A stretch of DNA of 56,442 nt from Patescibacteria group bacterium (lineage in GTDB: Bacteria > Patescibacteriota > Minisyncoccia > RBG-13-40-8-A): the NCBI GenBank assembly GCA_018897295.1, contig JAHILA010000018.1, forward strand, positions 1 through 56,442, given 5' to 3'. The translations under genes were made by a program, and so were the position numbers. Numbering within the stretch: position 1 is the first letter of the stretch; each line of letters opens with the position of its first letter. The notes under the pieces are model-generated. The model saw only the letters and a list, made by a program, of their open reading frames with translations, was not told where the DNA came from and ran no database searches. This document shows positions 12,927 through 53,878 of this stretch, piece by piece.

Positions 12927-12941
12927 AAGTTCTATATTTAA

Positions 12942-14902: not shown

Positions 14903-14903
14903 A

Positions 14904-15776: not shown

Positions 15777-15785
15777 ATTTATTAT

Positions 15786-16904: not shown

Positions 16905-16918
16905 AAATTCTTGTTTAA

Positions 16919-18043
16919 TTAATTATTTTCATACGGCACAAACTGGCCGTTTTTGATGGTTTTGAAAGTTATGGGTTTAATTACGTCTCCGTTTTGATCA
17001 AACGTAGTCAACCCTCCAACGCCCGGATAATCTTTAATTTTATATAATTCTTCTTTTATACATATTGTATTTTCTCCACAAGATTTTAAAACTAAAGCAA
17101 TAATTTTTAATGCATCATAAGAATTAGCTGCTAAGGCCTCGCTTTTAACTCCGTAATTCTTCTCATACTGTTTCTGATAATCGGCAATTGCAGGATTATT
17201 AGGATCAAATGCCGGATAAGTATAAATTATTCCATCGCTCAAAGGTGGTTTTACTAAATCAAAAAATTCTTTTGCTTCTATTCCGGTAGAGGCAAATATC
17301 GGTAAATTAATTCCAAACTCTTTTGTCTGTTTTACTATTTCTCCCATTTCCGAAACATAACCAGCCATATAAATTGCATTAGAATTGCTATTTTTTATTT
17401 TGGTTAAAATTGTACGAAAATCTGTTTCTCCTTTTGTATAATGTTCAGCTCCAACAATTTCCCCTTTCAATTCTTCAAATTTTTTGGTAAACCCTGCTTC
17501 ATAACTTAATCCATTTTCAGAATTTACCGCAATAATAAAAGCTTTTTTAATGCCAAGTTCATTAATAACAAACCCAGCCATTTTTTCTCCATGCAAAGTT
17601 CCGCTTTCCCTATTTCGAAAAATATAATCACCGGCATTAGTAATATCGGCACCACTGGCCATTGGAGTAAAAAGTATAACTTTTGCCTTTTCAGCTATTG
17701 GAGCAGCGCCCAGAACAGCATTTGAACTAGCAAAACCAATTATTACTGAAACTTTATCAACATTAATTAATTTAGTTGTCGCTGTTACTGCTTCGTTTGT
17801 TTCGCTTTTACCATCTTCATAGATAATTTCTAATTTTCTCCCTTTAATACCGCCGTTGGAATTGATTTCCTCCAATGCAAGATTTAAGCCATTTTTTAAA
17901 TAATTACCATAAACCGACAATTTTCCTGATAAATCAGCAACAATTCCAATCTTAATCGTCCCTTTTGGCGCTGGTTTATAAAATACCGCAATTACAATGA
18001 TAATGATTATTACAACTATAATCGGTATCCAATTTTTTTTCAT
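16919..18043 (-). CDS. ABC substrate-binding protein, LivJ/K family, paralog 5
   Basis: 374 aa. C-terminus KNGQFVPYENN is identical to paralog 6. Confidence 0.8.
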   Translation of the reverse strand: MKKNWIPIIVVIIIIIVIAVFYKPAPKGTIKIGIVADLSGKLSVYGNYLKNGLNLALEEINSNGGIKGRKLEIIYEDGKSETNEAVTATTKLINVDKVSVIIGFASSNAVLGAAPIAEKAKVILFTPMASGADITNAGDYIFRNRESGTLHGEKMAGFVINELGIKKAFIIAVNSENGLSYEAGFTKKFEELKGEIVGAEHYTKGETDFRTILTKIKNSNSNAIYMAGYVSEMGEIVKQTKEFGINLPIFASTGIEAKEFFDLVKPPLSDGIIYTYPAFDPNNPAIADYQKQYEKNYGVKSEALAANSYDALKIIALVLKSCGENTICIKEELYKIKDYPGVGGLTTFDQNGDVIKPITFKTIKNGQFVPYENN

Positions 18044-18057
18044 AAATTCTTGTTTAA

Positions 18058-19176
18058 TTAATTATTTTCATACGGCACAAACTGGCCGTTTTTGATGGTT
18101 TTAATAATAATTGGCTTAATCGCATCTCCATTCTGATCAAATGAAGTTGTACCACTTACTCCTGGATAATCTCGAATATTATATAGTGCATCTTTTACGC
18201 ATATAGGATTTCCGTCATGACAATTTTCCTTAATAATTTTTGCTAATATCATTATACAGTCATAAGCCTGGGCGGCAAATATGGTTGGATTCTTACCGAA
18301 TTTTTCTGTATATAAATCCCAGAACCTTGGATCAATATTTCTTCCAAAATCTGTTACAGCAAAGATAATGCCCTCTGATAAATTACCCACGGCTTCTGAG
18401 AATTTTGTATCTGTTACAAAGCCATCCTCTGCCAATATCTGGAAAGACATTCCTAATTCGTTCATCTGTTTTATAATGAGCCCTGCTTGAGGCATTAACC
18501 CTCCTATATAAATCGCCTCTGGCTTTCCCGCCTTTATTTTTATAAGTTGGGTTTTAAAATCTGTTGTATCATTACCAAATCCTTCTCTACTCAAAACATT
18601 CTTCCCCTCGTTAATAAATTTATCTGTTATTATCTTATCTCCTAATGTATAGGCGGAACTGGATTGATCATAAATTGTTGCTATAGAATTAAATTTTTGG
18701 ACCGCAAATTCGGCCAGCTTCCCGGTTTTTTGGCTCATTGTAACATGATCTCTAAAGATAAAATCGCCTGCCTGGGTTATTTCATCAGCAGCACTTCCAG
18801 GAGTTATCAAAACTATCCCTTCCTGTTCTGCTAATGGCGCAATGGCCAATGTGCTCGGAGAACAAATAGCTCCTATTACAAGTTTTGCCCCCTTCAGAGT
18901 AAGTTCACGATAACCCGACACAGCCTCTTTAGCATCACATTTCTCATCCGCAAATATTACTTCTATCTTTATTTTGCTGTTTTGATTTAATTTCTCCAAT
19001 GCCAAATTTATTGCTTGTTTTGCGTCCTCGCCTAAATTTGTAGCCTTTACGGTTAATGGCAAAATCGCGCCTATCTTAATCGTCCCCTTCGGTGCGGATT
19101 TATAAAATACTGCCACCAATACAATAACGATTATTATAATAACTATTCCTCCTATTATTTTTGTTGTTTTGTTCAC
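18058..19176 (-). CDS. ABC substrate-binding protein, LivJ/K family, paralog 6
   Basis: 372 aa. Same architecture. Confidence 0.8.
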   Translation of the reverse strand: MNKTTKIIGGIVIIIIVIVLVAVFYKSAPKGTIKIGAILPLTVKATNLGEDAKQAINLALEKLNQNSKIKIEVIFADEKCDAKEAVSGYRELTLKGAKLVIGAICSPSTLAIAPLAEQEGIVLITPGSAADEITQAGDFIFRDHVTMSQKTGKLAEFAVQKFNSIATIYDQSSSAYTLGDKIITDKFINEGKNVLSREGFGNDTTDFKTQLIKIKAGKPEAIYIGGLMPQAGLIIKQMNELGMSFQILAEDGFVTDTKFSEAVGNLSEGIIFAVTDFGRNIDPRFWDLYTEKFGKNPTIFAAQAYDCIMILAKIIKENCHDGNPICVKDALYNIRDYPGVSGTTSFDQNGDAIKPIIIKTIKNGQFVPYENN

Positions 19177-20074: not shown

Positions 20075-22483
20075 TTATATTACTATATTGATTAATTTAC
20101 CTTTTACGAAAATCACTTTTTTCGGCTTTTGGTCATTCAGCCAGGATTTTACTTTTTCGTTAGACAAAGCAAATTTCTTTGCTTCGTTTTCTGAAATATC
20201 GCTTTTCACTTCAATTTTGTCTCTTACTTTTCCATTAACCTGAATCACTAAATCAATTGTGTCTTTTTTAATAAGTTTCTCGTCATATTTCGGCCATTTT
20301 TCCTCAAAAATACTTTTAATTTTTGCCTGCCTGCCGGTAGGCATGGACTTTTGACTTTTAATTTTTAAATATAATTCTTCTGCAATATGCGGTGCGAACG
20401 GCGCTAAAATTTTCAGAAAATTTTCCGCATCTTCTTCGGATAAAATAGTCCACGCATTCACGAACTCCATCATTGAAGCAATTGCAGTATTGAATTTAAA
20501 ATTATTAATATCTTCCCCGACTTTCTTAATTGTGTAATTTATTTTTTGTATTAAATTTTTACTAGTAGTTTTTCCGATTTTACTCTTATCGCAAAACAAA
20601 GCCCAAACTCTGTTTAAAAATTTATATACTCCTATTATACTTTTATCGTTCCACGCTCCGCCATCTTCAAACGCAGCAATAAATAATACATACATTCTGA
20701 ATGTATCCGCCCCGTATTTTTTGACATAATCATCAGGAATTACCACATTGCCTTTTGATTTTGACATTTTACTGCCATCAGCTGCCAGAATCATTCCTTG
20801 ATGATTAAGTTTTGTGAATGGTTCGTCAAATTTTATCAATTTCTGGTCAAAAAGCGCCTTGGTAATGAACCGCGCATAAAGCAGATGCATACAAGCGTGT
20901 TCTGCTCCGCCGACGTATTGGTCAACAGGCAGCCATTTTTCAGCCAATTTCTTATCAAACGGCTCGTCTTTTAAATGCGGACTTAAATATCGAAGAAAAT
21001 ACCAAGAAGAACAAACAAATGTATCCATTGTTTCTGTGCTCCTTTTCGCACTGCCCCCACATTTGGGGCATTTTATATTTACAAATTCCTTTGAACGAGC
21101 TAATGGCGATTCGCCTTCGCTGGTTGGCTTGAAATCTTCTAAATCCGGCAGTTTAACCAGATTTTCATCTAATACCTCGCCGCATTTATCGCAATAAATA
21201 ATCGGTATTGGCGCACCCCAATATCTTTGTCTTGAAATCAGCCAGTCGCGCAAATGGTAATTAATTTTTTTCTTGCCTAATTTATTTTTATCAAGCCATT
21301 CGGTGATTTTCTCAATCGCATCTTCCGAATTTAATCCATTGAATTCTCCAGAATTTATCAATTTCCCATATTCTGTAAAAGCTCTCTTTGAAATGTCGCC
21401 ACCCGCAATAACTTCCTTGATTTCAATATTATATTTTTTGGCAAATTCATAATCTCTCTCGTCATGCGCCGGCACAAACATCACTGCTCCACCGCCATAA
21501 GTTGCAATCACATAATCGCCAATCCAAACTGGAATTTTTTCATTATTTAAAGGATTAATTGCATACGCTCCAATAAAAACTCCTGTTTTTTCTTTTTCCA
21601 AATCTGTTCTTTCTAATTCTGATTTCTTTTTACTGGCTGAAATATAATTATCAACTTCTTTTTTATGTTCGGAAGTGGTAATTTTTTGCACTAATTCGTG
21701 TTCCGGAGCCAAAACCAAAGCTGTAACTCCGAAAATCGTGTCAATTCTAGTTGTAAAGACTTCGATTTCATTGTTATTGATTTTAAATTTTATATTCGTG
21801 CCTTCTGATTTCCCAATCCAGTTTTTCTGCATCACAATTGTTCTTTCCGGCCAATTTAATTTTTTATGGTCTTCCAGTAATCTCTCTGCATAATCAGTAA
21901 TTTTAAAAAACCACTGCTTCAAATCTTTCTGGATAACTTCACTTTCACAGCGTTCGCATTTTCCGTCAATTACCTGCTCATTTGCTAAAACGGTTTTGCA
22001 TGACGGGCACCAGTTAACTGGCGCTTCGGCGCGATAAGCCAGCCCATTTTTATATAAAACTCCAAATAGCCACTGCGTCCATTTATAATATTCTGGGTCA
22101 GAGGTATTTATCTCTTTATCCCAATCAAACATTATACCCAATGATTTAAGCTGTTTTCTGCCGAAATCAATATTCTGTTTGGCGCTTTGAGCTGGATGCA
22201 CCCCTGTTTTTATAGCATAATTTTCTGCTGGCAAACCGAATGCATCTGCGCCAATCGGCTGTAAAACATTAAAACCAATCATTTTTTTGTACCTCCCGAA
22301 AACATCCGCACCAGTATAATTGTATCCATGCCCAATATGGATTTTATCGCCTGATGGATAATAAAACATCACCAAATTGTAAAATTTGGCTTTTTTCTTG
22401 TCATTTAAATCGCAAACATCAATCTTGTTTTTTCCCCAATATTTCTGCCACTTATCTTCTATTTTTTGCGGATTGTAATCCAT
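20075..22483 (-). CDS. leuS: leucine--tRNA ligase
   Basis: 802 aa. HIGH-type HIGHGYNY, KMSKSKGN, CP1 editing domain. Confidence 0.95.
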   Translation of the reverse strand: MDYNPQKIEDKWQKYWGKNKIDVCDLNDKKKAKFYNLVMFYYPSGDKIHIGHGYNYTGADVFGRYKKMIGFNVLQPIGADAFGLPAENYAIKTGVHPAQSAKQNIDFGRKQLKSLGIMFDWDKEINTSDPEYYKWTQWLFGVLYKNGLAYRAEAPVNWCPSCKTVLANEQVIDGKCERCESEVIQKDLKQWFFKITDYAERLLEDHKKLNWPERTIVMQKNWIGKSEGTNIKFKINNNEIEVFTTRIDTIFGVTALVLAPEHELVQKITTSEHKKEVDNYISASKKKSELERTDLEKEKTGVFIGAYAINPLNNEKIPVWIGDYVIATYGGGAVMFVPAHDERDYEFAKKYNIEIKEVIAGGDISKRAFTEYGKLINSGEFNGLNSEDAIEKITEWLDKNKLGKKKINYHLRDWLISRQRYWGAPIPIIYCDKCGEVLDENLVKLPDLEDFKPTSEGESPLARSKEFVNIKCPKCGGSAKRSTETMDTFVCSSWYFLRYLSPHLKDEPFDKKLAEKWLPVDQYVGGAEHACMHLLYARFITKALFDQKLIKFDEPFTKLNHQGMILAADGSKMSKSKGNVVIPDDYVKKYGADTFRMYVLFIAAFEDGGAWNDKSIIGVYKFLNRVWALFCDKSKIGKTTSKNLIQKINYTIKKVGEDINNFKFNTAIASMMEFVNAWTILSEEDAENFLKILAPFAPHIAEELYLKIKSQKSMPTGRQAKIKSIFEEKWPKYDEKLIKKDTIDLVIQVNGKVRDKIEVKSDISENEAKKFALSNEKVKSWLNDQKPKKVIFVKGKLINIVI
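20324..20346. repeat. GC-rich palindromic element, family C copy 2 (inside leuS)
   Basis: tgcctgcctgccggtaggcatgg. Encodes MPTGRQAK in leuS, in the opposite coding orientation to the topA copy (LPAGRQGK). Confidence 0.7.
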
Positions 22484-31468: not shown

Positions 31469-31945
31469 TTAGTACAAATTTTCTATTTCTTTCATCTCTT
31501 CAGGATTATAGCCTAAAAGACTTATTAGCTTTTTTTCAAACTTGTCCGCCAAAGTTTTAATGGAGGCAGAGTCTGCGCAATTTAAATCCTTAAATGTTCC
31601 CAAAACCAATTTCCAGATATCTTCATCCCTTTCTTCTCCGACAATCGCCTCATTGATTAAATCTGCCAGTTTTTTGGCAATTTTTATTTTCTCCAAATCT
31701 TTTTTGATATTTAAAAATTGATCAATCAAAACCGCGTCTTTTAAAATTAAAAAATTCTTGCCTTCAACAAGAATCATCTGCACATACGTAATAACTTCAA
31801 TAGAGTATCTTAATTTACTTTCTAATCTTTTCACGCCTTTGGCGAAAATATTAATCTTTCCCAATTTTTCGCTATAAATGGTCAAAAGCCGGTCAACCTC
31901 ATTGGAATCAACTGATTTCAATATAATCGCCTCGGTTTTTATCAT
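31469..31945 (-). CDS. recO: DNA repair protein RecO (short form)
   Basis: 158 aa. N-terminal OB-fold pattern MIKTEAIILKSVDSNEVDRLLTIYSEKLGKINIFAKGVKR. Shorter than the typical about 240 aa. Confidence 0.6.
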   Translation of the reverse strand: MIKTEAIILKSVDSNEVDRLLTIYSEKLGKINIFAKGVKRLESKLRYSIEVITYVQMILVEGKNFLILKDAVLIDQFLNIKKDLEKIKIAKKLADLINEAIVGEERDEDIWKLVLGTFKDLNCADSASIKTLADKFEKKLISLLGYNPEEMKEIENLY

Positions 31946-32876
31946 GCTTAAAATTCTTTAATAATTTAATCTTTAACTTGTGCCCGCTACAATGACTCAA
32001 AACTCCTAAATATGATTGAATGTTTTTGTTATTTATCCTTTCAAACATTCTTTTCTTGGTTTTGGTGCGTAAAACTCTATAATACGGTAAAGTTACATAT
32101 CCTAAAAAATCAATTCCCTGACTATATTTCCTTATAATAATCTTATCAGGATAGAAGCATAAATTCAATTGATCATTTAAGAATTGGTTTATTGGATTTA
32201 TTAGTTTCTGTAGCTTATCCTTATTTTTGTCTAAAATTACGAAGTCATCTGTATAACGGAGGTAATGTTTAATTTTTAATTTGTGTTTTACAAATTGGTC
32301 TAACTTATTTAAATAAATATTGGCAAAATACTGGCTTGTAAGATTGCCGAGAGGAATGCCCTTATTTGTTTCTGAATTAAAACTAAAAATTATTTCTTTA
32401 ATCAACCGTAAAATATCATTATCCTTTATTCTCTCCTTTAAAATTTTAATTAAGACATCGTGGTCAACGCTGTCAAAAAACTTCTTAATATCGCACTTTA
32501 AACAATAGAAATTAAATTTATTGTTTTGGCTCTGTTTTAATGAAAATGTTCTTAACCTATTAACTGCTTTGTGTGTTCCTTTATTGATTCGGCAGGAATA
32601 AGAGTCATAAATAAATATTTTGTCGTAAATATTGTTTAGATGTTTTGAGATTAAATGATGAATAATTCTATCTCGGACTTTGGCTTTGTGGATATAACGT
32701 GGTTTCGGATCATTAATACGAAATGAAGTGTATCCGGAATGTTTGTAGGTTTTATTCTTTAATTCTTGGTATAATTGGAATATATTGTCTTCCAAATTAA
32801 ATTCAAATTCCAAAACATCTTTTCTTTTTGATTTTCCTTTTTTGAATTCTCGCCAAGACGAAAACAAATTTTCCAA
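31908..32876 (-). CDS. diversity-generating retroelement reverse transcriptase (true N-terminus probably further upstream, to 32971 via the homopolymer)
   Basis: 322 aa from a TTG. Motif 4 IPLGNLTSQYFANIYL (DGR-type GxxxSQ), YTDDFVIL catalytic box, DPKPRYIHKAKVRDRIIHH. The frame stays open upstream and encodes a Brt-like IKRHNFEKINNYGDLITLENLF. Confidence 0.9.
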   Translation of the reverse strand: MENLFSSWREFKKGKSKRKDVLEFEFNLEDNIFQLYQELKNKTYKHSGYTSFRINDPKPRYIHKAKVRDRIIHHLISKHLNNIYDKIFIYDSYSCRINKGTHKAVNRLRTFSLKQSQNNKFNFYCLKCDIKKFFDSVDHDVLIKILKERIKDNDILRLIKEIIFSFNSETNKGIPLGNLTSQYFANIYLNKLDQFVKHKLKIKHYLRYTDDFVILDKNKDKLQKLINPINQFLNDQLNLCFYPDKIIIRKYSQGIDFLGYVTLPYYRVLRTKTKKRMFERINNKNIQSYLGVLSHCSGHKLKIKLLKNFKHDKNRGDYIEIS

Positions 32877-32928
32877 AGTTATTAAATCGCCGTAATTATT
32901 AATTTTTTCAAAATTATGTCTTTTAATG

Positions 32929-32939
32929 CCCCCCCCCCC
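32929..32939. repeat. C11 (G11 on minus strand) homopolymer tract
   Basis: Counted directly: gcc + ccccccccc. Lies between the ATG and the conserved body of both the RT (minus) and the Avd-like ORF (plus). Confidence 0.95.
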
Positions 32940-32941
32940 AA

Positions 32942-33286
32942 CGGGTTGAAAACGAAGTTTCTATCGTTCATAAAATTATTGAGTTCTATAAATTATTCCA
33001 CGAATACTTAAAGTCATTTCCAAGATCTGAGAAATATACATTAGGAGAAAAAATCGAAAATCTAATTATAGAATTACTGATAACTACATTGAAAAGTGCT
33101 TACTCACATAAGGACAAAAAATTGCCATTATTGAATAAAATTGATAACAGAATTTTTATTTAAAAAACACTTATTCGATTAGCGAAAGAGGTTAAGTCAT
33201 TAGATATTAAAAAATATATTGCTTTAGAGAAAAAACTGCAAGAAATCGGAAAAATGCTAGGCGGTTGGATTAAATCAATAAAATAA
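32942..33286 (+). pseudogene. avd: Avd-like four-helix-bundle accessory protein (23S rRNA IVS protein family). As assembled it has no in-frame start and an internal TAA.
   Basis: Manual translation: RVENEVSIVHKIIEFYKLFHEYLKSFPRSEKYTLGEKIENLIIELLITTLKSAYSHKDKKLPLLNKIDNRIFI*KTLIRLAKEVKSLDIKKYIALEKKLQEIGKMLGGWIKSIK*. The FPxxEKYxLG and IGKMLGGWI motifs are typical. The stop is at 33161-33163. Confidence 0.6.
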
Positions 33287-33294
33287 ACTAAACG

Positions 33295-33321
33295 AAAGAG
33301 CATCTAATAATGATGCTCTTT
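33295..33321. terminator. hairpin aaagagcatc-taataat-gatgctcttt: terminator of the avd-like gene on +, and a structured element just 3' of TR on the minus transcript
   Basis: Perfect 10-bp stem followed by a T-run on + strand. Sits 18 nt from the TR 3' boundary. Confidence 0.45.
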
Positions 33322-33338
33322 TTCGCGCGGAGAGACTT

Positions 33339-33464
33339 CTGGAGAAAACCAGACGCCGAACCATAGTTGGCATTAGTGTTGCTCACCCAATTCGTGTTGA
33401 ACTTGACCTTGCCATCGTTAAAGTTGAAATACGGCGCGCGGCTGAAATCGCCATCAGCATCAGG
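33339..33464 (-). repeat. DGR template repeat (TR)
   Basis: Gap-free 126-nt alignment to VR1 and VR2. The TR is A-rich on the coding-sense strand (7 Asn codons in YFNFNDGKVKFNTNWVSNTNANY). Confidence 0.85.
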
Positions 33465-33601
33465 TTTATTGTTTTTGTCCGTCTGTTTCACTGGAAATCG
33501 AGATTGGCTTTATATACCAAAATTCTCTCAATCCTGCATTTTATTCGACGGCACCCTAATAATATTAGAGACCCACGCCAGACAAAAACAAGCAGTATCT
33601 C

Positions 33602-33610
33602 ATTATAGCA
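33602..33610 (-). promoter_or_regulatory. extended -10 promoter (TGCTATAAT) about 130 nt upstream of TR, candidate TR-RNA/RT promoter
   Basis: Minus strand reads agtgTGcTATAATg. No strong -35. Confidence 0.35.
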
Positions 33611-33703
33611 CACTCTTGGAAGTCGTGACCACCAAGATTCTGGCTATTTATAGTTTATCAAATTCTTATTTTTAAAACAATATTTATTTTTATAAATTAA
33701 AAT

Positions 33704-33731
33704 GCGGGATGCCTCCATTGAGACATCCCGC
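33704..33731 (-). terminator. conserved GC-rich hairpin 22 nt downstream of the target-1 stop codon (28 nt beyond the VR1 3' boundary): terminator and/or DGR target-recognition cruciform
   Basis: gcgggatg...catcccgc stem. The same element with a 12-bp perfect stem sits at the equivalent position after VR2. Confidence 0.6.
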
Positions 33732-33753
33732 CAAGAATTCAAGAATTCCAGAG

Positions 33754-34620
33754 TTACTGCTGGAGAAAACCAGACGCCGAACCATAGTGGGCACTAGCGC
33801 TGCCCACCCAATCCGTGCCGAACCTGACCTCGCCACCGCTAAAGCTGAAACACGGCGCGCGGCTGAAATCGCCATCAGCAGCAGGCGCGTATTCGTCACC
33901 AGCGCAGTCGATCCAAGGATCGTCGTAGTGCTGGAGACGTTCGGGATGCGTGAGAATCATGCACCCGATTTTGAATGCGCCGAGTCCGAACTCATTGCCT
34001 GTAAAGACCTCACGGGCCCGACGAACGGAGCGACCCCGGTGACGAAGACCGAACTGCGAGGCAACGACCAGAATGTCGAAGCCCGTTTGTTGGTTACCTA
34101 ACATCTGGAGCTTCTTGGCCGTGCGCTCATGCTGCCGGAGATACTGCTCTCCGATCCTGCCTTCGCGGTGGTTGTAGAAGTTGCCGTCGCGCTGCTTCTT
34201 GATCAGATCGAGCACCTTCTGTACTGCTTCGTTGTAGGTCTTGGCGACCGACTGCCAACGCGGGATGGCGAACCATCCTTCGGCATTCGGCGGAAGCGGC
34301 TGCTGTGCCAACTTCTCATCGGCGAATCCGGCGCCTGGGAAGAGTTGCCGCAGGATGTTGGTCTGCTCCGTGATTCCTTTCGGCTTGTAGCCCGACAGGT
34401 ATCCGTAGCTGGACTTTACTTCCTCGTCGGCGAACTGGTTGCTCAGCGAGTGCTTCTTGATGGAAACGGTAATGTCGGCTTGGAATTCGTCGCCGTTCTC
34501 GATGAGTTTCTGAATACCGTCCTTGTCGAGGAGACCCTCGGCAATTGCGCGATCCACAGCATCTTCCGCGAACCGCTTAACCTGTTTCTGTTGACCCGAC
34601 GTGATCGATTGTGTCGTCAT
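33754..34620 (-). CDS. DGR target (variable) protein 1, GC-rich, no signal peptide, C-terminal VR
   Basis: 288 aa. C-terminus GDFSRAPCFSFSGGEVRFGTDWVGSASAHYGSASGFLQQ. RBS aaaggag upstream. Paralog of 42888-43763. Confidence 0.85.
   Translation of the reverse strand: MTTQSITSGQQKQVKRFAEDAVDRAIAEGLLDKDGIQKLIENGDEFQADITVSIKKHSLSNQFADEEVKSSYGYLSGYKPKGITEQTNILRQLFPGAGFADEKLAQQPLPPNAEGWFAIPRWQSVAKTYNEAVQKVLDLIKKQRDGNFYNHREGRIGEQYLRQHERTAKKLQMLGNQQTGFDILVVASQFGLRHRGRSVRRAREVFTGNEFGLGAFKIGCMILTHPERLQHYDDPWIDCAGDEYAPAADGDFSRAPCFSFSGGEVRFGTDWVGSASAHYGSASGFLQQ
33760..33885 (-). repeat. DGR variable repeat 1 (VR1)
   Basis: 15 mismatches to TR, all at TR adenines (T on + strand). The 3' 28 nt (33760-33787) are identical to TR (IMH-like). 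Confidence 0.85.
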
Positions 34621-34743: not shown

Positions 34744-37605
34744 CTAAACTTTGTCAATAGTTAACACCCTTTTGGCGGAAAATATAATTTCTTCGGCAAT
34801 GACTTGCTTTTTGATTTGCTCTGCGTATTTTTCTATAATTTCTTTTCCCTCCTTCGCTGAAGCTACGGAGGACAAGCCGTAATAAACTCTTATCTTATCT
34901 TTCGGCGTTAAATTGGCTTTTTTCCTTAAAACCTGAACACTTCTTACAAAATCCCTAACCATTCCTTCTTCTTTTAATTCTGGAGTAATTTCAGCTCTCA
35001 ACCCTATATTTATGATATCTTTATTTCGATTAGAATCTACAACAATTTTTTTAACGTTTATTTCTTCTTCAATTAATTTCGAGAGTTCACTTTCTAGTTT
35101 AAAATCAGGAATAATTAATTCCGAAAGTGGTTGTCGTACTTTTATCCCTTTTGATGCTCGTATTTGCAGGGCCATACTACAGATTTCTCTAATCTGTTCC
35201 ATTTTTTCTTCAAGCTTTTCGTCAATCAATTTTTTATCTACCTTTGGCCAATCTTCAAGATGAACCGACTCTTTGTCCCCGCCAATTTCCTTATATATGT
35301 GCTCTGCTGTAAACGGCATTACCGGCGCCATTATTTTGGATAATTCCAATAAAACATATTTCAGGGTCTGAACAGCTTCTTTTTTATTATCAGATTTAAA
35401 TCTCTCTCGCGAACGCCTTAAATACCAGGTCGACAATTCATCAATAAATCCGGCAAGCGGCCGAGTGGCTTCATTTAAATCATAATTATTGTATCCTTCA
35501 GTAATTTCTTTTTTCAGAGATTCGATTTTTGAAAGAATCCATTTATCCAAAACATTCTTGCTTTTTGTGCTGGCTTCTGCTTCGCTTTCAAACATTTTAT
35601 AAAACGACAAAACATTCAATAAAATCAGTAAAATCTTTTTTACCACCTCATCAACTCCCTTTTCCGAAAAACACAAATCATCAGCTTTCATTACCGAAGA
35701 AGTGGCTAAATAATAACGCACTGCATCAGCGCCATGTTTTTCAAAAACATTCATTGGGTCAGGATAATTATTCAGATGCTTGGACATTTTTTTGCCGTCT
35801 TCAGCCAAAACCATGCCATTCACAATCACATTTTTAAATGCTTCTTTGCCTTTAATCGCAGACGCTAAAACGTGCAAATAATAAAACCATGCCCTCGTCT
35901 GATCCACGCCCTCGGCAATAAATTGCGCTGGAAAGTTTTCCTCGAATTTCTCTTTGTTTTCAAAGGGATAATGCATTTGTCCATAAGGCATTGAACCCGA
36001 TTCAAACCAACAATCTAAAACATCAGGAATCCTTCGCATCATTCCGCCCTGCCCTGAGCCTGTCGAATGGGCGCATTTTTCACAAGGAAACGTAATTTTA
36101 TCCATAAAGTGTTTATGCAAATCCGTAATTTTTTCTTCGCTTAATTCTTCCAATTCTTTTATTGAACCGATTACTTTTTTCTCTTTGCATTTATCACAAA
36201 CCCAAATTGGAATTACCGAGCCCCAGAACCGCTGGCGCGAAATTGACCAATCGCGCGCGCCTTCCAACCATTTGCCAAATCTCCCCTCTTTAATGTGCTC
36301 TGGCACCCAATTTATTTTCTTGGCATATTTCAGCATTTTATCTTTCAGCTCGATAATATTAACAAATAAAGAAGAAGTTGCGTAATTTAAAAGCGGGGAT
36401 TCGCAACGATAACAAAAAGGATAGGAATGAATAAATTTCTCTGTTTTAAAAACCAGATTTTTCTTCTCTAAAAACTCAATTATTTTTTTATCTGTTGATT
36501 GCGGATTAGATTTCGGCTTAACTTCCAAACCAACAAAATCTTTTGCTTCATCAGTAATCTGTCCGTCTATTTTGACATGCTGGATAAACGGCAGATTTTT
36601 CTCCTTACCCAAATTCATATCATCCTCGCCGAATGCAGGCGCGATATGCACAACGCCTGTGCCATCTTCAATAGTCACAAAATCAGCTAATTGAATCGTA
36701 TAAAGATTTTCCCTACCCGCCATTGCAAGCGAAGCGTTGCGGGTGGATAAATAATAATTAAATAATGGTTTGTATTTTTTACCCTCCAAATCTTTGGCTT
36801 TTGTTTTCCCGATTATCTCATGTTTTTTATTGCCAAAAATTGCATCGAGATTTTGTTCGGCTAAAATGTATTTCCCATCATCTGATTTAACTTCGACATA
36901 ATTGATATGCTTGCCAATTGCTAAAGCAACATTGCCCGGTAGAGTCCAGGGCGTGGTTGTCCAGGCCAAAATATAAGTTCCTGGTTCATCTACTAATTCA
37001 AACTTGGCAATAATTGAAATATCTTCAATGTCCTGATAATTATCGCTTACTTCATGCTGGGATAATGTTGTTTCGCATCTTGGGCAAATATGCATTGATT
37101 TATATCCCTCATAAATCAATTTTTTATCCCATAATTGTTTAAAAACCCACCATACGCTCTCCATAAAGCTTGGATCCATAGTATGATAAGCATTTTCCAT
37201 ATCCGCCCATCTGCCCAATCTCTCAATTACCTTTTTCCATTCGCCCACATATTTTAAAACCTTGCTTCGCGCTATTTCATTGAATCTATCGACTCCAATC
37301 GCCTCAATATCTTTTTTGTGTTTTAATTCCAATTCTTCTTCAACTATGTTCTCAATCGGCAGACCATGGGTATCCCAACCCCATTTTCTTTCTACTTTGT
37401 AACCACGCATTGTCCAGTATCGCGGAACCATATCTTTCATTAAAGATGCGACAATATGACCATAGTGCGGGGTGCCAGTGGCAAATGGTGGCCCATCATA
37501 AAATACAAAATCCCCCTTCGGCGATTTTTTTGCGAGGGATTTTTCAAAAATCTTATTTTCTTTCCAAAATTCCAATATTTTCTTTTCTATTTCAGGTATA
37601 TTCAC
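34744..37605 (-). CDS. ileS: isoleucine--tRNA ligase
   Basis: 953 aa. PPFATGTPHYGHIV, KMSKHLNN, editing domain, zinc-binding cysteines. Confidence 0.95.
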   Translation of the reverse strand: MNIPEIEKKILEFWKENKIFEKSLAKKSPKGDFVFYDGPPFATGTPHYGHIVASLMKDMVPRYWTMRGYKVERKWGWDTHGLPIENIVEEELELKHKKDIEAIGVDRFNEIARSKVLKYVGEWKKVIERLGRWADMENAYHTMDPSFMESVWWVFKQLWDKKLIYEGYKSMHICPRCETTLSQHEVSDNYQDIEDISIIAKFELVDEPGTYILAWTTTPWTLPGNVALAIGKHINYVEVKSDDGKYILAEQNLDAIFGNKKHEIIGKTKAKDLEGKKYKPLFNYYLSTRNASLAMAGRENLYTIQLADFVTIEDGTGVVHIAPAFGEDDMNLGKEKNLPFIQHVKIDGQITDEAKDFVGLEVKPKSNPQSTDKKIIEFLEKKNLVFKTEKFIHSYPFCYRCESPLLNYATSSLFVNIIELKDKMLKYAKKINWVPEHIKEGRFGKWLEGARDWSISRQRFWGSVIPIWVCDKCKEKKVIGSIKELEELSEEKITDLHKHFMDKITFPCEKCAHSTGSGQGGMMRRIPDVLDCWFESGSMPYGQMHYPFENKEKFEENFPAQFIAEGVDQTRAWFYYLHVLASAIKGKEAFKNVIVNGMVLAEDGKKMSKHLNNYPDPMNVFEKHGADAVRYYLATSSVMKADDLCFSEKGVDEVVKKILLILLNVLSFYKMFESEAEASTKSKNVLDKWILSKIESLKKEITEGYNNYDLNEATRPLAGFIDELSTWYLRRSRERFKSDNKKEAVQTLKYVLLELSKIMAPVMPFTAEHIYKEIGGDKESVHLEDWPKVDKKLIDEKLEEKMEQIREICSMALQIRASKGIKVRQPLSELIIPDFKLESELSKLIEEEINVKKIVVDSNRNKDIINIGLRAEITPELKEEGMVRDFVRSVQVLRKKANLTPKDKIRVYYGLSSVASAKEGKEIIEKYAEQIKKQVIAEEIIFSAKRVLTIDKV
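34847..34876. repeat. GC-rich palindromic element, family A copy 2, inverted (inside ileS)
   Basis: ccctccttcgctgaagctacggaggacaag is the reverse complement of the livG/argS copies. Translated as LSSVASAKEG. Confidence 0.75.
36711..36746. repeat. GC-rich palindromic element, family B copy 2 (inside ileS)
   Basis: ccctacccgccattgcaagcgaagcgttgcgggtgg. Translated as TRNASLAMAGR. Confidence 0.7.
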
Positions 37606-39164
37606 ATTTTTTCGGGCTTACTGATGCCCATTAAATTCAAAATATTTTCCAAGACGATTTTTGTAGCCATAATTAATGCCAGACGCGCTTTTTCCAAATC
37701 TTTTTTCTCTCCCAAAACATGGCATTCAGTATAAAATCTATGAAACAATGATGCAACTTTCATTGCGTATGCCGGCAAACGATGAACTTGATAATCTTTT
37801 GCTATTTCTTCAATAATTTCCGGAAACGCGATTAAGTTTTTAATCAGTTCTATTTCAGCAGAATGATTTAGTAATTCTAATTTTACATTCAAATTATGCC
37901 CGCTGGTTTTTCTTAAAATGCTGTTAATGCGGGCATATGCGTATTGGACATAATAGACAGGATTTTTGTCCGATTTCTCTTTTGCTAAATCCAAATCAAA
38001 ATCCATCTGTTTATCATTTGAATGCATCAAAAAGAAAAATCTGACCACATCAGAACCAACTGCATCAAGTAAATCATCCATAGGAATAAAAGTTCCCAGG
38101 CGTTTGGACATTTTTATTTTTTTTCCTTTTTCTATTACTGTAATAAATTGCTGTAAAATTATTTCCAATTGCCCCTTATATCCGATTGCCTCAACCCCAG
38201 CCATTAAGCCAGGCACATCGCCGTGATGGTCAGCGCCCCAGATATTTATTACTTTATCGAATTTTCTCTCCTTAAATTTATTATAATGATAAGCAATATC
38301 GCTGGCTAAATATGTTTTTAAGCCGTCTTTTTTAATCAGAACCCTATCCCGATTATCTCCTAAACTGCTGCTTTTAAACCAAGTCGCGCCATCCTGTTCG
38401 TATAATAAATTTTTGTCTTTTAATAATTTGATTATTTTCTCTGACAAGTCCTTTTTATGCAAATTAGATTCCCAAAACCATTCGTCATATTTAATCCCGA
38501 ATTTATCAATCGTCTTTTTTATCATTTCATCAATAATAATTTCCGCTGCCTTCTGACCTACTTCATATGCGTCTTTTTCCTTAATTCTGTCGGCCAATAA
38601 ATCAATATACTCTCCTTTATACTGCGCCTGGTCATCTTTTAATATTGAATGCCCTAAAACAGCTATTTGGTTCCCGGCATTATTTACATAAAACTCTTTT
38701 TTTATTTTATATCCAACAAAATTTAAAATATTTGCCAAAACATCTCCCATTGGACCGCCTCTGCCATTGGCAACTGTCAGGGGGCCAGTGGGATTAGAGG
38801 AAATAAATTCCACTTGTACTTTTTTGCCTTTACCAATATCGGTTTTCCCGTAATTTTTATTCTCTTTGATAATTTCTTTAATCTGGTTTTGCAAAAATTC
38901 TGGCTTGAAATAAAAATTTATAAAACCATTTACAATATCGATTTTTTCGAAAATTCCATCGTCTATTTTTGACCTGATTTCATTTGCAACTTCCATTGGA
39001 CCTCGCTTTTCTTTTTTTGCTAAAATTAAAGCCACATTTGTGGCATAATCGCCGTATTCCTTATTTTCCGGAATCTCTACAGTAAAATTCTTGTCCTCCG
39101 TAGCTTCAGCGTAGGAGGAAACTGCTTTCTTTATTATTTCCTTAATCTGCTTTCGAATTGTCAT
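37602..39164 (-). CDS. argS: arginine--tRNA ligase
   Basis: 520 aa. SSNPTGPLTVANGRG (HIGH-equivalent), MSKRLG-like KMSK region, DALR anticodon-binding C-terminus. Confidence 0.95.
   Translation of the reverse strand: MTIRKQIKEIIKKAVSSYAEATEDKNFTVEIPENKEYGDYATNVALILAKKEKRGPMEVANEIRSKIDDGIFEKIDIVNGFINFYFKPEFLQNQIKEIIKENKNYGKTDIGKGKKVQVEFISSNPTGPLTVANGRGGPMGDVLANILNFVGYKIKKEFYVNNAGNQIAVLGHSILKDDQAQYKGEYIDLLADRIKEKDAYEVGQKAAEIIIDEMIKKTIDKFGIKYDEWFWESNLHKKDLSEKIIKLLKDKNLLYEQDGATWFKSSSLGDNRDRVLIKKDGLKTYLASDIAYHYNKFKERKFDKVINIWGADHHGDVPGLMAGVEAIGYKGQLEIILQQFITVIEKGKKIKMSKRLGTFIPMDDLLDAVGSDVVRFFFLMHSNDKQMDFDLDLAKEKSDKNPVYYVQYAYARINSILRKTSGHNLNVKLELLNHSAEIELIKNLIAFPEIIEEIAKDYQVHRLPAYAMKVASLFHRFYTECHVLGEKKDLEKARLALIMATKIVLENILNLMGISKPEKM
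39090..39119. repeat. GC-rich palindromic element, family A copy 3 (inside argS)
   Basis: cttgtcctccgtagcttcagcgtaggagga. Translated as SSYAEATEDK. Confidence 0.75.
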
Positions 39165-41491: not shown

Positions 41492-41527
41492 CCCTCCTAC
41501 GCTTCACCAAAGCTTCGGAGGACATCC
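41492..41527. repeat. GC-rich palindromic element, family A-like copy 4 (intergenic)
   Basis: Reverse complement ggatgtcctccgaagctttggtgaagcgtaggaggg is family A with a 6-nt longer loop. Confidence 0.6.
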
Positions 41528-41552: not shown

Positions 41553-41626
41553 AGAATGGCAAGGATGGCTTGCCATCCGAAGCTCCGATAGAATGACAAG
41601 GATGGCTTGCCATCCGAAGCTCCGAT
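41553..41626. repeat. tandem direct repeat, 2 x 37 nt, each containing a ggatgg-cttg-ccatcc hairpin
   Basis: agaatg(g/a)caaggatggcttgccatccgaagctccgat twice, 36/37 identical. Followed by the gctccgat-tt-atcggagc palindrome. Confidence 0.85.
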
Positions 41627-41642: not shown

Positions 41643-42001
41643 TGGAGACGGGGAGAATTGAACTCCCGTCTCGAAGGCTCTTTAAAATAATTCGACAAGC
41701 TTGGTCTGTTTATTTTCTCGGTTATTTAGATAAAAAGCAGACAAAAATCAGAATAACCTGACCCAATTTCATTTCAGTGTTTTGCATTGGGAATCAAGAC
41801 ACCTATCTCAAATGCCTTTCGGCACTATAACACTTCAATCGCCTATTGAGAATCTCAATTAAAGTGGCTGCGACTTAATAAATTAAGCTGTAGCGAAAGC
41901 AAAATTTGTTTTTGCGTTTGTTTTTTTCAGATTTTAACGAGATGCTGAAGTCCTCGGCTTGCTTATTTTAAAAAGATCTTCGATCGAAACCTATCGTCCC
42001 C
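41643..42001 (-). ncRNA. ssrA: tmRNA (ssrA), tag reading frame GCA AAA ACA AAT TTT GCT TTC GCT ACA GCT TAA = AKTNFAFATA*
   Basis: 5' GGGGACGAUAGGUUUCGAUCG and 3' GAGACGGGAGUUCAAUUCUCCCCGUCUCCA. Acceptor pairs with a G3:U wobble. T arm GGGAG-UUCAAUU-CUCCC. Directly downstream of smpB. Confidence 0.85.
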
Positions 42002-42865: not shown

Positions 42866-42887
42866 CAAGAATTCAAGAATTCCAGAG

Positions 42888-43763
42888 TTACTGCTGGAGA
42901 AAACCAGACGCCGAACCATAGCGGGCATTAGTGAGGCCCACCCAACGCGTGCCGAACAAGACCCCGCCAACGCGGAAGCGGAAGCACGGCGCGTCGTGGA
43001 AATCGCCAGCAGCATCAGGCGCATACTCGTTGCCAGCGCAGTCGATCCATAGGTCGTCATAAGAGACGAACCGTTCAGGATGTGTCAGAAGCATGCAACC
43101 TGCCTTGAATGCGCCGAGTCCGAACTCGTTGGCCATAAAGACCTCGTGAGTCCGACGAACGGAGCGACCCCGATGGCGAAAACCGAACTGAGCGGCGACG
43201 ACCAGAATGTCGAAGCCCGTCTGTTGGTCACCCAACATCTGGAGCTTCTTGGCCGTGCGCTCGTGCTGGCGGAGATACGTCTCTCCGATTTCGCCTCCGC
43301 GGTAGTTGTAGAAGTTGCCCTTGCGCTGCCTCTTGATCAGGTCGAGCACCTTCTGAACCGCCTCGTTGTAGGTCTTGGCAACCGACTGCCAACGCGGGAT
43401 GGCGAACCATCCTTCGGCGCCATCGGGGAGCTCAGACAAGCTCTTGGCGAACTCGAGGGTCTGACTCGGGTTGAGATTGAAAATCTTGGCGATTGCCTTG
43501 ATCTGATCCGCGATCGGCTTTGGCCCCTTGTACTCCTTCGGGTACGTGCGGTTGGAACAAACTTCCTCGTCGGCGAACTGGTTGGACGCGGACAGCTCAG
43601 TGATGAGCTTCGCGATCCCGTCCTGCAGTTCACCACCGCGCTCGTTGAGTCGCTGTGCGCGCGCATCGTCGAGCTTGGACTTGTTGTAGACGGCCTCGAA
43701 GAGACCGACTGCGTGGAGACCTTTCGGGTCTCGGCTGGTGATCAATGTTTTTAACATCGTCAT
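42888..43763 (-). CDS. DGR target (variable) protein 2, GC-rich paralog of 33754-34620
   Basis: 291 aa. C-terminal half is highly similar to target 1 (AEGWFAIPRWQSVAKTYNEAVQKVLDLIK...FDILVVA.QFG.RHRGRSVRR). Ends GDFHDAPCFRFRVGGVLFGTRWVGLTNARYGSASGFLQQ. Confidence 0.85.
   Translation of the reverse strand: MTMLKTLITSRDPKGLHAVGLFEAVYNKSKLDDARAQRLNERGGELQDGIAKLITELSASNQFADEEVCSNRTYPKEYKGPKPIADQIKAIAKIFNLNPSQTLEFAKSLSELPDGAEGWFAIPRWQSVAKTYNEAVQKVLDLIKRQRKGNFYNYRGGEIGETYLRQHERTAKKLQMLGDQQTGFDILVVAAQFGFRHRGRSVRRTHEVFMANEFGLGAFKAGCMLLTHPERFVSYDDLWIDCAGNEYAPDAAGDFHDAPCFRFRVGGVLFGTRWVGLTNARYGSASGFLQQ
42894..43019 (-). repeat. DGR variable repeat 2 (VR2), remote
   Basis: Gap-free 126-nt alignment to TR. 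By my count there are 26 mismatches: 21 at TR adenines and 5 non-adenine differences clustered in the 5' (coding-sense) third. Confidence 0.8.
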
Positions 43764-53015: not shown

Positions 53016-53048
53016 AATTAAATTATAACTCCAAAAATTCTCGTGTCA

Positions 53049-53075
53049 AATGTAGGACATCGTATGTCCTACATT
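53049..53075. repeat. REP-like perfect palindrome copy 1 (aatgtaggacat-cgt-atgtcctacatt), 3' of the Y1 transposase gene
   Basis: 12-bp perfect stem, 3-nt loop. Confidence 0.85.
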
Positions 53076-53083
53076 ACGTCTAG

Positions 53084-53776
53084 CTAATCCAATATTAATT
53101 CTCGAATATATGTTTCGTTTTTTTGATATTGTTCTAACCAATCAATAAAATATTTTTTATATTTTTCTGGTCCGCCAAAAATTTCTAATAAAAACTTATT
53201 ATCAATAACCGATGGAAAATTTTTAATTCCCCAATAATCCATATGGCTTGACCACTTATATTTTTCTAAAAATTTAATTGCTTGTTTGATCTCTAATCTC
53301 GTTAATTTCTTTTCTTTCCAACCCTCTTTCCATAAACTTAATGGATTCGAATGAATATAACAAACAAGATGCATCAATTGTCTATCATCTTTAATATAAA
53401 CATCTTTGTATCTCCCTTGAAAAAGATAGCCACTTCTTTTGTGTTTTTCATTAAAACCCCTTGCGTATCCGCAATGAAGTTTTTTCATAAACAAATAAGC
53501 TCCGTTTTTCTTAATCGGTTCAATAATCAAATGATGATGATTCGGCATTAGCACAAATGCGTGTATATTAACCAATTTATCACGTTCTATGTAGGACATC
53601 GTATGTCCTACATTACTACCTCTACGAACATAGGGCAGGGCAGGTTTTTTGTCATTGAATTCATACAAATCATGAATAAATCGAATATAATCGTTATTAT
53701 CTCGAAAAATGTTGCGTTTTTCAACGCCTCGATCAAATACATGATAAAACCCATTTGTTAAAAATTCTCTAGGCAT
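53084..53776 (-). mobile_element. IS200/IS605-type Y1 (HUH) transposase, REP-associated tyrosine transposase (RAYT)-like
   Basis: HUH motif LMPNHHHLII and catalytic Tyr region HLVCYIHSNP. Start set at MPREFLTNGFYHVFDRG (ATG 53776). Flanked by and containing the same palindrome. Confidence 0.7.
53589..53613. repeat. REP-like palindrome copy 2, inside the transposase ORF
   Basis: atgtaggacat-cgt-atgtcctacat. Translated in frame as NVGHTMSYI. Confidence 0.85.
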
Positions 53777-53794
53777 ATAAATTTTTATAGCTTT

Positions 53795-53819
53795 ATGTAG
53801 GACATCGTATGTCCTACAT
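53795..53819. repeat. REP-like palindrome copy 3, just 5' of the transposase start
   Basis: Identical 25-nt core. Confidence 0.85.
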
Positions 53820-53878
53820 TTAATGTTAAAATTAAAAAAATCGCTTGTCAATATCTCCATCAATATCATCAATCATTA

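Follow-up and report, generated by a model that had tools for sequence, protein, structure and literature searches.

The stretch of DNA analysed here, hereafter the window, is a contig of 56,442 nt from a Patescibacteria group bacterium (JAHILA010000018.1). It carries a GC-rich 30-nt hairpin repeat (family A) which is translated in frame within three protein-coding genes, ileS, argS and a gene for a LivG-like ATPase, as well as a variant hairpin located between the transfer-messenger RNA (tmRNA) gene and a small GIY-YIG open reading frame (ORF). A pattern search for the 30-mer CTTGTCCTCCGTAGCTTYAGCGWAGGAGGR returned the three positions and orientations described in an earlier note on this DNA and no other site in the window at up to 3 mismatches, and none of 100 dinucleotide-preserving shuffles contained a match (positions in Table 1). 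Every pair of copies is identical at 28 of 30 positions, in keeping with the minimum of 28/30 given before, and the peptides that had been read from the repeat were found again in the minus-strand ORFs. With a GC content of 53–60% the copies stand out from their flanks, for which we measured 31–34% rather than the 25–30% of the earlier note, and from the whole window (35.9%). ArgS and IleS exceed the curated NCBIfam cut-offs and LivG stays under its equivalog cut-off. Judged by its ArgRS homologues, the organism is a member of the Paceibacterota (Parcubacteria). The hosts had been called three essential genes: the argS, ileS and livG-like genes were indeed identified, but essentiality is unsupported for the LivG-like ATPase.

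On the CTTG strand, each of the three copies folds into a stem of 6–7 bp, with CCTCC/GGAGG as the closing pairs and a small GC-closed apical loop on top. The pairing of the imperfect cctcc...ggagg hairpin noted earlier is confirmed, but its stability is only moderate, ranging between -12.6 and -13.7 kcal/mol (z -1.3 to -3.3). The variant hairpin at the GIY-YIG gene, previously listed as a looser copy, is real and folds at -19.3 kcal/mol (z -4.2); its 3' arm AGGAGGG resembles a Shine-Dalgarno sequence. Depending on the variant, 4 of the 6 frames of the 30-mer are open, and only stop-free frames are in use. Since the unit is 30 nt long, in-frame placement is automatic, so that the non-trivial part is the restriction to stop-free frames. 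The possible degenerate relative in the recO-like ORF was not counted as an insertion, as the variable segment equals that of its relatives in length.

Table 1. Hairpins, GIY-YIG arrangements and argS-site variants in the window and in fetched loci
Locus	Feature	Positions	Strand	Remarks
Window	Hairpin copy 1	14486-14515	+	CTTGTCCTCCGTAGCTTTAGCGAAGGAGGA; antisense to LivG-like gene 14114-14902(-); peptide SSFAKATEDK, residues 130-139
Window	Hairpin copy 2	34847-34876	-	CTTG on the minus strand, co-directional with ileS 34744-37605(-); peptide (G)LSSVASAKEG, about residues 911-920
Window	Hairpin copy 3	39090-39119	+	Antisense to argS 37602-39164(-); peptide SSYAEATEDK, residues 16-25
Window	Variant hairpin, enlarged apical part	41492-41527	-	GTCCTCCGAAGCTTTGGTGAAGCGTAGGAGGGC; intergenic, 3' of tmRNA, about 12 nt 5' of the GIY-YIG start codon
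Window	Possible degenerate relative, membership uncertain	31541-31570	+	CTTGTCCGCCAAAGTTTTAATGGAGGCAGA; 70% identity to copy 1; within recO-like ORF 31469-31945(-); repeat family D17
Window	GIY-YIG ORF, 79-80 aa	41240-41482	-	Pfam PF01541, E 1.8e-18; catalytic domain is the only Pfam domain
Window	tmRNA gene	41643-42001	-	Rfam 133.9 bits; ARAGORN; 3' end followed by hairpins and GIY-YIG ORF
Window	Arrangement			tmRNA, hairpin, GIY-YIG
L165	Arrangement			tmRNA, hairpin, GIY-YIG
L025	Arrangement			tRNA-Ser, hairpin, GIY-YIG, hairpin
L208	Arrangement			tRNA-Ser, hairpin, GIY-YIG
L253	Arrangement			tRNA-Trp, two hairpins, GIY-YIG
L277 (Margulisbacteria MAG)	tRNA-Pro	1057-1132
L277	Family-A hairpin	1133-1175	antisense
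L277	GIY-YIG ORF	1201-1443
L277	Family-A hairpin	1462-1498	sense	Followed by GCCCGCCGCCCCGA, a repeat of the tRNA 3' end
L267	Arrangement			tRNA-Glu, degenerate antisense hairpin, ORF, canonical CTTGGCCTCCGAAGCTTTAGCGAAGGGGGA directly after the stop codon, TTCCCGTGGGGTCAC (tRNA repeat)
L257 (Nitrospinae-like)	Arrangement			tRNA-Asn, ..., ORF, GGTATTACGAAGCTTTAGCAAAGTATACC, TGCCCGGGGAG
L278 (IMG/VR)	Arrangement			Inverted hairpin pair around the ORF; stems different but internally paired
Window	argS-site variant			Canonical 30-mer
L133	argS-site variant			CTTGTCCTCCGTAG[TCCCGACAGATGTCGGGA]TGTAGGAGGA
L134	argS-site variant			CTTGTCCGCCGAAG[TCCCGTCAGACGGGA]CGAAGGAAGA
L135	argS-site variant			CTTGTCCGTCATAGCCTTGGCGACGGCGGGA
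L136	argS-site variant			CTTGCCTGCCATAGCTTTAGCGACGGTGGGGA

The peptides encoded by the repeat are derived insertions with a patchy distribution, and they fall into loop or linker segments that are poorly predicted. Close relatives of argS, ileS and livG, at 83–89% identity, hold both allele states. In ArgRS the insert is present in the window and in homologue P0002 (89% identity, FSYAEATEDK) and absent from P0003–P0007 and P0009, which read V-GNE-DF; at the DNA level, locus L121 shows 'gga aat gaa' at the place of the 30-mer. The ileS allele is filled in the window as well as in L123 and L124 and empty in L121, where 'tcc gaa aac' is found instead. LivG is filled in the window and in L131 (P0122), empty in L130 (P0123, 83% identity) and also empty in about 40 homologues of 245 aa, archaeal ones included, which read ...FWKNLxGxNKITKEKEEK...; the empty consensus GxNKITKEK is kept across bacteria and archaea, and MJ1267 (PDB 1G6H family) is without a counterpart of the insert. 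Distant orthologues do not carry the same peptide at the same place, and the proposal that common descent of the proteins does not explain the repeat is borne out by presence and absence among relatives and by the outgroups and solved homologues lacking the peptides. In AlphaFold 2 models computed from homologue alignments, the only stretch of ArgRS with a predicted local distance difference test score (pLDDT) below 50 comprises residues 21–25, within the insert, in a coil between helix 3–14 and the first strand (mean pLDDT 91). In LivG (mean pLDDT 86) the insert scores about 50–66 and is located at the start of a helix, after the disordered residues 114–128. A second low-confidence stretch of LivG, residues 65–69, belongs to a different GC-rich insert, AQGRSASGG.

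In comparison to the nearest empty alleles the window genes do not show a simple addition of 30 nt. Net gains are +21, +24 and +21 nt and 9–15 nt of ancestral sequence are missing, which is consistent both with replacement of target DNA on insertion and with trimming of the loops by later deletions. We found no target-site duplication at the three window sites, where alignments with empty alleles are blurred by extra indels. The ancestral sequences CTTTTCCTTGG and CTTCATTTCC resemble the 5' arm of the hairpin; this microhomology applies to only two of the three sites and may be no more than a consequence of loops rich in Lys and Glu. Orthologous copies in L123 have inherited point mutations, two in argS and one in ileS.

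The argS site was also compared across a wider set of homologues. In an ArgRS tree built without the N-terminal 32 residues, filled alleles (P0001/2, P0008, P0013/16/19, P0020/25, P0031/32) are interleaved with empty ones, which have the homologous motif G-N/E-E/x-V/I-D/N-F in common. Related hairpins, some of them nested, occur at an identical left junction, AAAAT[C/T] followed by CTTG, in argS of the window and of L133–L136. The nested variant together with 4–5 upstream codons (I[K/N]NA[A/V]) is common to three filled alleles of different subclades and differs from their nearest empty relatives, and the first ~140 nt of argS are near-identical between the window and L123 despite an overall protein difference of 11%. 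Filled argS alleles probably pass between lineages by homologous recombination, which is the simplest reading. Other recurrent insert sites with hairpin-type peptides (FSRQARDKWPNP, PRRGSGQSP, RLPARQE) are present in the ArgRS of P0002, P0018, P0019, P0023, P0024, P0047 and P0036–P0040, which suggests that each gene may hold a few hot, tolerant insert sites.

The repeat is not restricted to this lineage. One genome per GTDB species was scanned for GTCCTCCGNAGCTTN{1,8}AGCGNAGGAGG, and at least 120 matches were obtained where about 0.1 would be expected by chance according to our own estimate (23 fixed bases, ~6x10^11 nt). By their record titles, the matches listed include Gammaproteobacteria, Alphaproteobacteria, Bdellovibrionales, Desulfobacterales, Planctomycetota, Bacteroidota, many Patescibacteria, Verrucomicrobiota (Opitutae, Lentisphaeria and Kiritimatiellales included), Nitrospirota, Elusimicrobiota, Omnitrophota, Cloacimonadota, Hydrogenedentota and Acidobacteriota. 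At least a dozen phyla carry the 26-nt core, almost all as metagenome-assembled genomes (MAGs) from short-read, long-read and hybrid pipelines; the matches listed also contain two isolates, the cultured Alphaproteobacteria Taklimakanibacter lacteus and Maricaulis virginensis. The element is therefore not peculiar to genomes of the candidate phyla radiation (CPR). Local GC content at the listed loci ranges between 29 and 71% and the flanks are unrelated, while conservation ends with C[T/C]T before the core and A after it, defining the 30-nt unit. About two thirds of the copies among the matches listed are located in stop-free stretches of at least 100 codons, read as SSFAKATEDK (29 copies), LSSVASAKED (25), LVLRSFSEGG (13) or PPSLKLRRT (12). 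Hosts with in-frame copies confirmed by Pfam are FtsK (twice), ThrRS, AlaRS, GlyRS, PriA, Tgt and a glucosaminidase-LysM protein. Copies within genes lie in both orientations relative to the mRNA, and others are found in non-coding DNA. Five IMG/VR contigs have the element; a BLAST search with the 30-mer found nothing among PLSDB plasmids, INPHARED phages and 5,426 E. coli genomes. Rfam has no family for the hairpin: neither the whole window, searched at gathering thresholds, nor two sub-regions, searched at E<=10, yielded anything but the tmRNA, one tRNA and chance snoRNA hits. Origin from a universal RNA (rRNA, tRNA or SRP RNA fragment) was considered and rejected, given this lack of an Rfam match; the tmRNA tag AKTNFAFATA is not convincingly similar to the encoded peptides.

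Family A belongs to a structured superfamily. Its members have a 5' YTTG, a basal stem of 5–7 bp of free but paired sequence and a conserved apical module C-GWA-GC-YTYR-GC-GNA-G. In the fetched loci the same loop is found on changed stems such as CCCTCC/GGAGGG, TCTGCC/GGCAGA and CACTGC/GCAGTG. We sampled copies independently of the stem by scanning metagenome contigs for the apical 17-mer CGAAGCTTTAGCGAAGG and analysed 122 copies among the matches listed. Five basal pairs are Watson-Crick in 72–92% of these copies, with stem types including GCCCGC/GCGGGC, ATCCGC/GCGGAT, GCCAGC/GCTGGC and GTCACC/GGTGAC. With the 17-mer fixed, the basal stem shows 118 compensatory cells compared to 45±5.7 in shuffles (none of 500 shuffles reached 118), and 88% of cells are paired as against 26–51% when the partner column is slid by 1–3 columns. 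The 5' flank conforms to YTTG, with T at -8 in 72 of 121 copies and G at -6 in 79 of 121, with nothing comparable in the 3' flank. Of the cells left unpaired in the five pairs, G·T or T·G (45) outnumber A·C or C·A (16) by about 3:1, and it is therefore the CTTG strand that must fold. Copies within genes run both with and against the mRNA, which favours single-stranded DNA (ssDNA) over RNA as the folded form.

We also assessed the sites at which superfamily hairpins have landed. In 240 pattern-selected loci, 33 of 317 apical modules are positioned within 60 nt of a tRNA or tmRNA gene, compared to 6.5±2.3 at random (maximum 14 in 500 trials), often 0–3 nt from the 3' end. Next to an intact tRNA, L016 carries a tandem series of three partial tRNA 3' ends, each made up of GGTTC, then CTTGTCTGCCG[T/A]AGCCT[C/T]GGCGAAGGCAG[A/G], then GATTCC, which is an exact 30-nt insert in the T-loop; more copies interrupt duplicated 5' parts of the same tRNA. 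In these arrays (L016 7360-7960) the three 3' halves repeat every 61 nt and the three 5' parts every 105 nt, and a hairpin interrupts every partial copy. Insertion into the tRNA gene appears to have been accompanied or rescued by local duplication. In L039 the family-A 30-mer is located in the apical loop of a sibling hairpin, between GTCCGCCGAAGCTTT and AGCGTAGGCGGA, and L050 is similar; overall, flanks extend the palindrome by at least 7 bp in 4.2% of copies compared to 0.65% in re-paired controls. Loop insertions lack a fixed target tetranucleotide (TTC/G, TTT/A and CGA/A at the junctions), and the clean solo insertions are without target-site duplication. Taklimakanibacter lacteus carries six superfamily hairpins in one orientation within 2 kb among tRNA genes (L043 3400-5500). 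Between the tmRNA 3' end and the family-A variant the window itself contains another hairpin unit, GGATGGCTTGCCATCCGAAGCTCCG, in two tandem copies that repeat every 37 nt (41563-41587 and 41600-41624), and similar 'cttcggatggca...' units follow the hairpin in L025.

The best clue to the movement of the hairpin, absent from the earlier note, is the adjacent GIY-YIG gene together with the tRNA and tmRNA ends. The window protein is the candidate autonomous partner of the hairpin, with the tmRNA gene as landing context in the window and in L165. Homologues of 79–95 aa are encoded in eight fetched loci, and in 26 aligned homologues (53–80% identity, several phyla) the residues Y3, Y5, Y16, G18, R26, H30 and E62, the catalytic Y, Y, R, H and E among them, are invariant. 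In eight of the 26 the C-terminus is (S)VALAKD or a closely similar tail, encoded in frame by the hairpin. In loci selected by the hairpin, the GIY-YIG ORF is found 8–100 nt from the hairpin, and it directly follows the 3' side of tRNA-Ser at two loci, of tmRNA at two and of tRNA-Trp at one. We removed this selection bias by fetching L257, L267, L277 and L278 by GIY-YIG homology alone. Hairpins again bound the cassette in all four, as they do in L025, so that solo hairpins and a longer coding element have their ends in common. In L277 there is no spacer at either junction, and the family-A stems GTCCTCC/GGAGGA occur at both ends in inverted orientation. The upstream hairpin abuts the tRNA 3' end in L267 and L277, and in L257, L267 and L277 there are 0 nt between the hairpin and a downstream repeat of the tRNA 3' end; these repeats are 10–15 nt long and variable. 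ARAGORN found no tRNA gene in L278.

On balance we consider it somewhat probable that the 30-mers are solo, non-autonomous copies of a pan-bacterial selfish hairpin family, whose coding form would be a hairpin-bounded mini-GIY-YIG cassette at tRNA and tmRNA 3' ends. This coding form would be a cassette of ~0.35–0.45 kb, with a gene for a GIY-YIG-only protein of 79–95 aa bracketed by hairpins, positioned immediately 3' of a tRNA or tmRNA and followed by the 10–15-nt repeat of the tRNA 3' end. The hairpin would fold in single-stranded form, most likely as ssDNA of the CTTG strand, and enter exposed loops or single-stranded DNA. The small GIY-YIG nuclease would probably act in trans as a structure-specific nicking enzyme, aided by host repair. 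Selection would then retain those copies within genes that keep the frame (30 nt being 10 codons), are without stops and lie in tolerant surface loops. In Paceibacteria, filled alleles probably move between lineages by homologous recombination in addition. Universal conservation of the tRNA T-arm would explain the range across phyla. More tentatively, and with a somewhat lower but still substantial probability, the family might represent an undescribed class of mobile element: a minimal GIY-YIG (URI-type) cassette whose 30-nt hairpin ends would be recognised by shape and apical loop, homing into the T-arm and 3' end of tRNAs and tmRNA. Its solo hairpins would then be the smallest known miniature inverted-repeat transposable elements (MITEs), and they would enter single-stranded loops as well as, in frame, the essential genes of streamlined genomes.

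Several observations weigh against this reading of the hairpin as part of a GIY-YIG element. As the window genes gained only 21 to 24 nt, the chemistry of insertion at coding sites is ambiguous. The upstream hairpin has no uniform orientation, being antisense in L277, L267, L208, L253 and L278 and sense in the window, L025 and L165. A GIY-YIG cassette in L131 is without a hairpin of this family and has unrelated 17-nt terminal repeats, and in Taklimakanibacter (L043) the ORF starting 5 nt after the hairpin (4438-4971) encodes an HNH and not a GIY-YIG protein. The loci selected by GIY-YIG homology are few (4–5), and the co-location could reflect a shared preference for tRNA-proximal sites.

These points are shared in part by the alternative that a REP- or MITE-like repeat (REP, repetitive extragenic palindrome) is moved by another enzyme in trans, either HUH/Y1 of RAYT (REP-associated tyrosine transposase) or IS200/IS605 type, IS91-like or HNH, with GIY-YIG genes merely sharing tRNA-proximal havens or using the hairpin as a landing site. 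Size and single-strand folding do agree with what is known of REP and IS200/IS605 elements, the hairpin contains G[T/A]AG motifs, and the HNH ORF of L043 and the hairpin-free cassette of L131 also speak for it. IS91-like rolling-circle enzymes have CTTG/GTTC targets, which the 5' YTTG and the insertion after GGTTC in the T-loop recall. We nevertheless regard this alternative as unlikely, because at several independent loci the outer borders of the GIY-YIG insert, where it meets the duplicated tRNA ends, coincide exactly with the hairpins, hairpin-encoded C-terminal tails recur in the GIY-YIG family, the loop insertions do not show a fixed target tetranucleotide, and the ORF between the inverted copies in L079, read by eye only, is not transposase-like. 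Less probable again is that the hairpin is mainly a functional cis-element, either a terminator or 3'-processing signal after tRNA and tmRNA or a stem sequestering the Shine-Dalgarno sequence of the nuclease gene, with copies inside genes as tolerated by-products. The covariation does indicate selection on, or a need for, pairing, many copies abut tRNA 3' ends, and the 3' arm AGGAGG is located 8–12 nt before GIY-YIG or HNH start codons; against it, the copies face either way with respect to transcription and also lie inside unrelated ORFs. A U-tract is lacking, no such Rfam family exists, and recurrence across phyla with unrelated flanks, nesting and tandem amplification is the behaviour of a spreading element.

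The remaining two explanations carry very little weight. That the peptides are ancestral or convergently selected and the DNA similarity secondary might be suspected from similar peptides at the same ArgRS position in several lineages, but these lineages are interleaved with empty alleles sharing a homologous ancestral motif, and the LivG consensus GxNKITKEK extends across bacteria and archaea. The same DNA is moreover read in four frames and also occurs in non-coding DNA, with identity at the nucleotide level across unrelated genes, and we consider this explanation very improbable. An assembly, chimera or adapter artefact, brought to mind by carriers that are almost all MAGs and by the lack of matches in PLSDB, INPHARED and the E. 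coli genomes, is practically negligible given its presence in short-read, long-read and hybrid assemblies and in two isolates, and given inherited point mutations, covarying stems and nested and decayed variants. We know of no common adapter sequence that the 30-mer resembles.

Further repeats and mobile elements were noticed in the window and the fetched loci. Other GC-rich hairpin families are found at 8865-8885, 20325-20345, 9195-9240, 36711-36748, 14690-14725, 36030-36076 and 5403-5437, several of them in frame in genes: IleRS contains NASLAMAGR and HSTGSGQGG, and AQGRSASGG in LivG is an exact 10-residue insert compared to MJ1267. Some of these families begin with CTTG or CATG, their apical parts differ, and one follows tRNA-Leu (9100-9184). 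Three copies of a different 25-nt perfect palindrome, ATGTAGGACATCGTATGTCCTACAT, lie within 800 nt at 53035-53831 (repeat families D19 and I5). A diversity-generating retroelement (DGR) extends over 31908-34620 and 42885-43763. Its reverse transcriptase is encoded at 31908-32876(-) (RVT_1, E 4.5e-24) and its template repeat occupies 33330-33464. Two paralogous ORFs of 62% GC (33754-34620 and 42888-43763) carry the variable repeats at their 3' ends (33751-33885 and 42885-43019). Mismatches between template and variable repeats fall on template adenines in 16 of 18 and 22 of 29 cases, and the block is missing between ileS and recO in the relative L123. The reverse transcriptase beside ileS was considered as a hairpin partner and rejected, since it is part of the DGR and unrelated to the hairpin. 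At 10680-19176, seven paralogous periplasmic-binding-protein genes (~370 aa, 60–90% identity in patches) are interspersed with those for the permeases and ATPases of an ABC transporter of the branched-chain amino-acid type. In L131 an 84-aa GIY-YIG ORF flanked by the 17-nt inverted repeats (CCCCCACACCAAATTTA) lies directly after livG (738-1140), and the window has no insert there; the nuclease gene itself therefore shows presence and absence between relatives. In L079 (4300-5700) a 327-aa ORF is bracketed by ~130-nt inverted repeats with four different hairpin units in series, family A included. As the sole inverted pair enclosing a gene this was considered as a RAYT-like layout and rejected, the ORF looking by eye like a signal peptidase (signal peptidase I-like) and not like a transposase.

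If the hairpins are indeed solo copies of a mobile GIY-YIG family, no mobile repeat shorter than this 30-nt unit would be known from essential genes. In many phyla, aminoacyl-tRNA synthetases, FtsK, PriA and Tgt would owe 7–10 extra residues to the unit, making it a general source of lineage-specific loops that annotation misses. A common, functionally orphan family of small GIY-YIG proteins would gain a concrete substrate and lifestyle, and near-identical sequence across phyla of 29–71% GC would imply very wide horizontal traffic toward a universal target. In practice, such hairpins would inflate 'hypothetical' peptides and disturb marker-gene alignments and phylogenies in CPR and other MAGs, and they could mark recent gene flow.

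Among known systems, the earlier note had pointed to the Rickettsia palindromic elements (RPEs). RPEs are ~100–150 bp long, encode ~30–50 residues and form Rickettsiales-specific sequence families, for which domain models exist in NCBIfam/TIGRFAMs; we know of no gene associated with them. They were reportedly described by Ogata et al. in 2000. The resemblance holds in that both are derived, dispersed palindromic repeats, placed in frame in housekeeping genes, translated and tolerated at the protein surface, with non-coding copies as well, but size, sequence and distribution differ: the present element has 30 nt (10 codons), a covarying stem, a link to GIY-YIG genes and a range of many phyla. 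At E<=1, NCBIfam returned no RPE model for the three host proteins (for LivG among the best 25 of 204 families).

REPs lie outside genes, are lineage-specific, have a GTAG head outside the stem and are partnered by a Y1 transposase. With REPs, REPINs (REP doublets forming hairpins) and RAYTs the hairpin shares an imperfect palindrome of 20–40 nt, many dispersed copies, recognition of a folded single strand and a flanking presumed mobiliser gene. It differs in that three of the four window copies and many elsewhere lie inside ORFs, that the 5' head is YTTG with G[T/A]AG only in internal loops, that the apical loop is conserved across phyla and that the neighbouring gene is of GIY-YIG type. Integron attC sites, which are 57–141 nt long, have R and L boxes, are bound by IntI and form part of gene cassettes, likewise keep their structure while the stem sequence varies, fold from one strand and recombine in a strand-specific way; none of their defining features, however, is seen in the hairpin, whose consensus is by inspection without the GTTRRRY core, and no integrase was seen among the scanned window ORFs. 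The GC clusters of yeast mitochondrial DNA are short GC-rich palindromes which spread in an AT-rich genome, at times into coding sequence, and resemble the hairpin in all of this. They are reviewed in PMC8811140. In contrast to the hairpin, GC clusters are organellar and fungal, have other sequences and are not known to have a linked nuclease gene of this type. Palindromic amphipathic repeat coding elements (PARCELs) are tandem repeats of 25 residues, found in ORFs without an assigned function (PMC2996958). As palindromic coding repeats distributed horizontally among distant microbes (PMC2996958) they are similar to the hairpin, but only as a conceptual relative, since here single 10-codon inserts occur in housekeeping genes.

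On the side of the nuclease, free-standing GIY-YIG homing endonuclease genes (phage T4 seg genes, I-TevI family) are comparable as small selfish nuclease genes beside conserved genes, with presence and absence (L131 compared to the window) and an intact catalytic motif. The proteins described here, however, consist of a catalytic domain of 79–95 aa alone, without a separate DNA-binding domain, whereas to our knowledge the known homing enzymes have such a domain and neither structured terminal hairpins nor solo derivatives. A MITE would be expected to show a fixed-length target-site duplication, which is lacking here, but the hairpin agrees with MITEs in that its ends are those of a longer protein-coding element. 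Literature searches by topic and by words for the element and its peptides returned no description of this hairpin; we rate it as a non-autonomous hairpin repeat with a nuclease-gene partner, which as such is a known kind of element.

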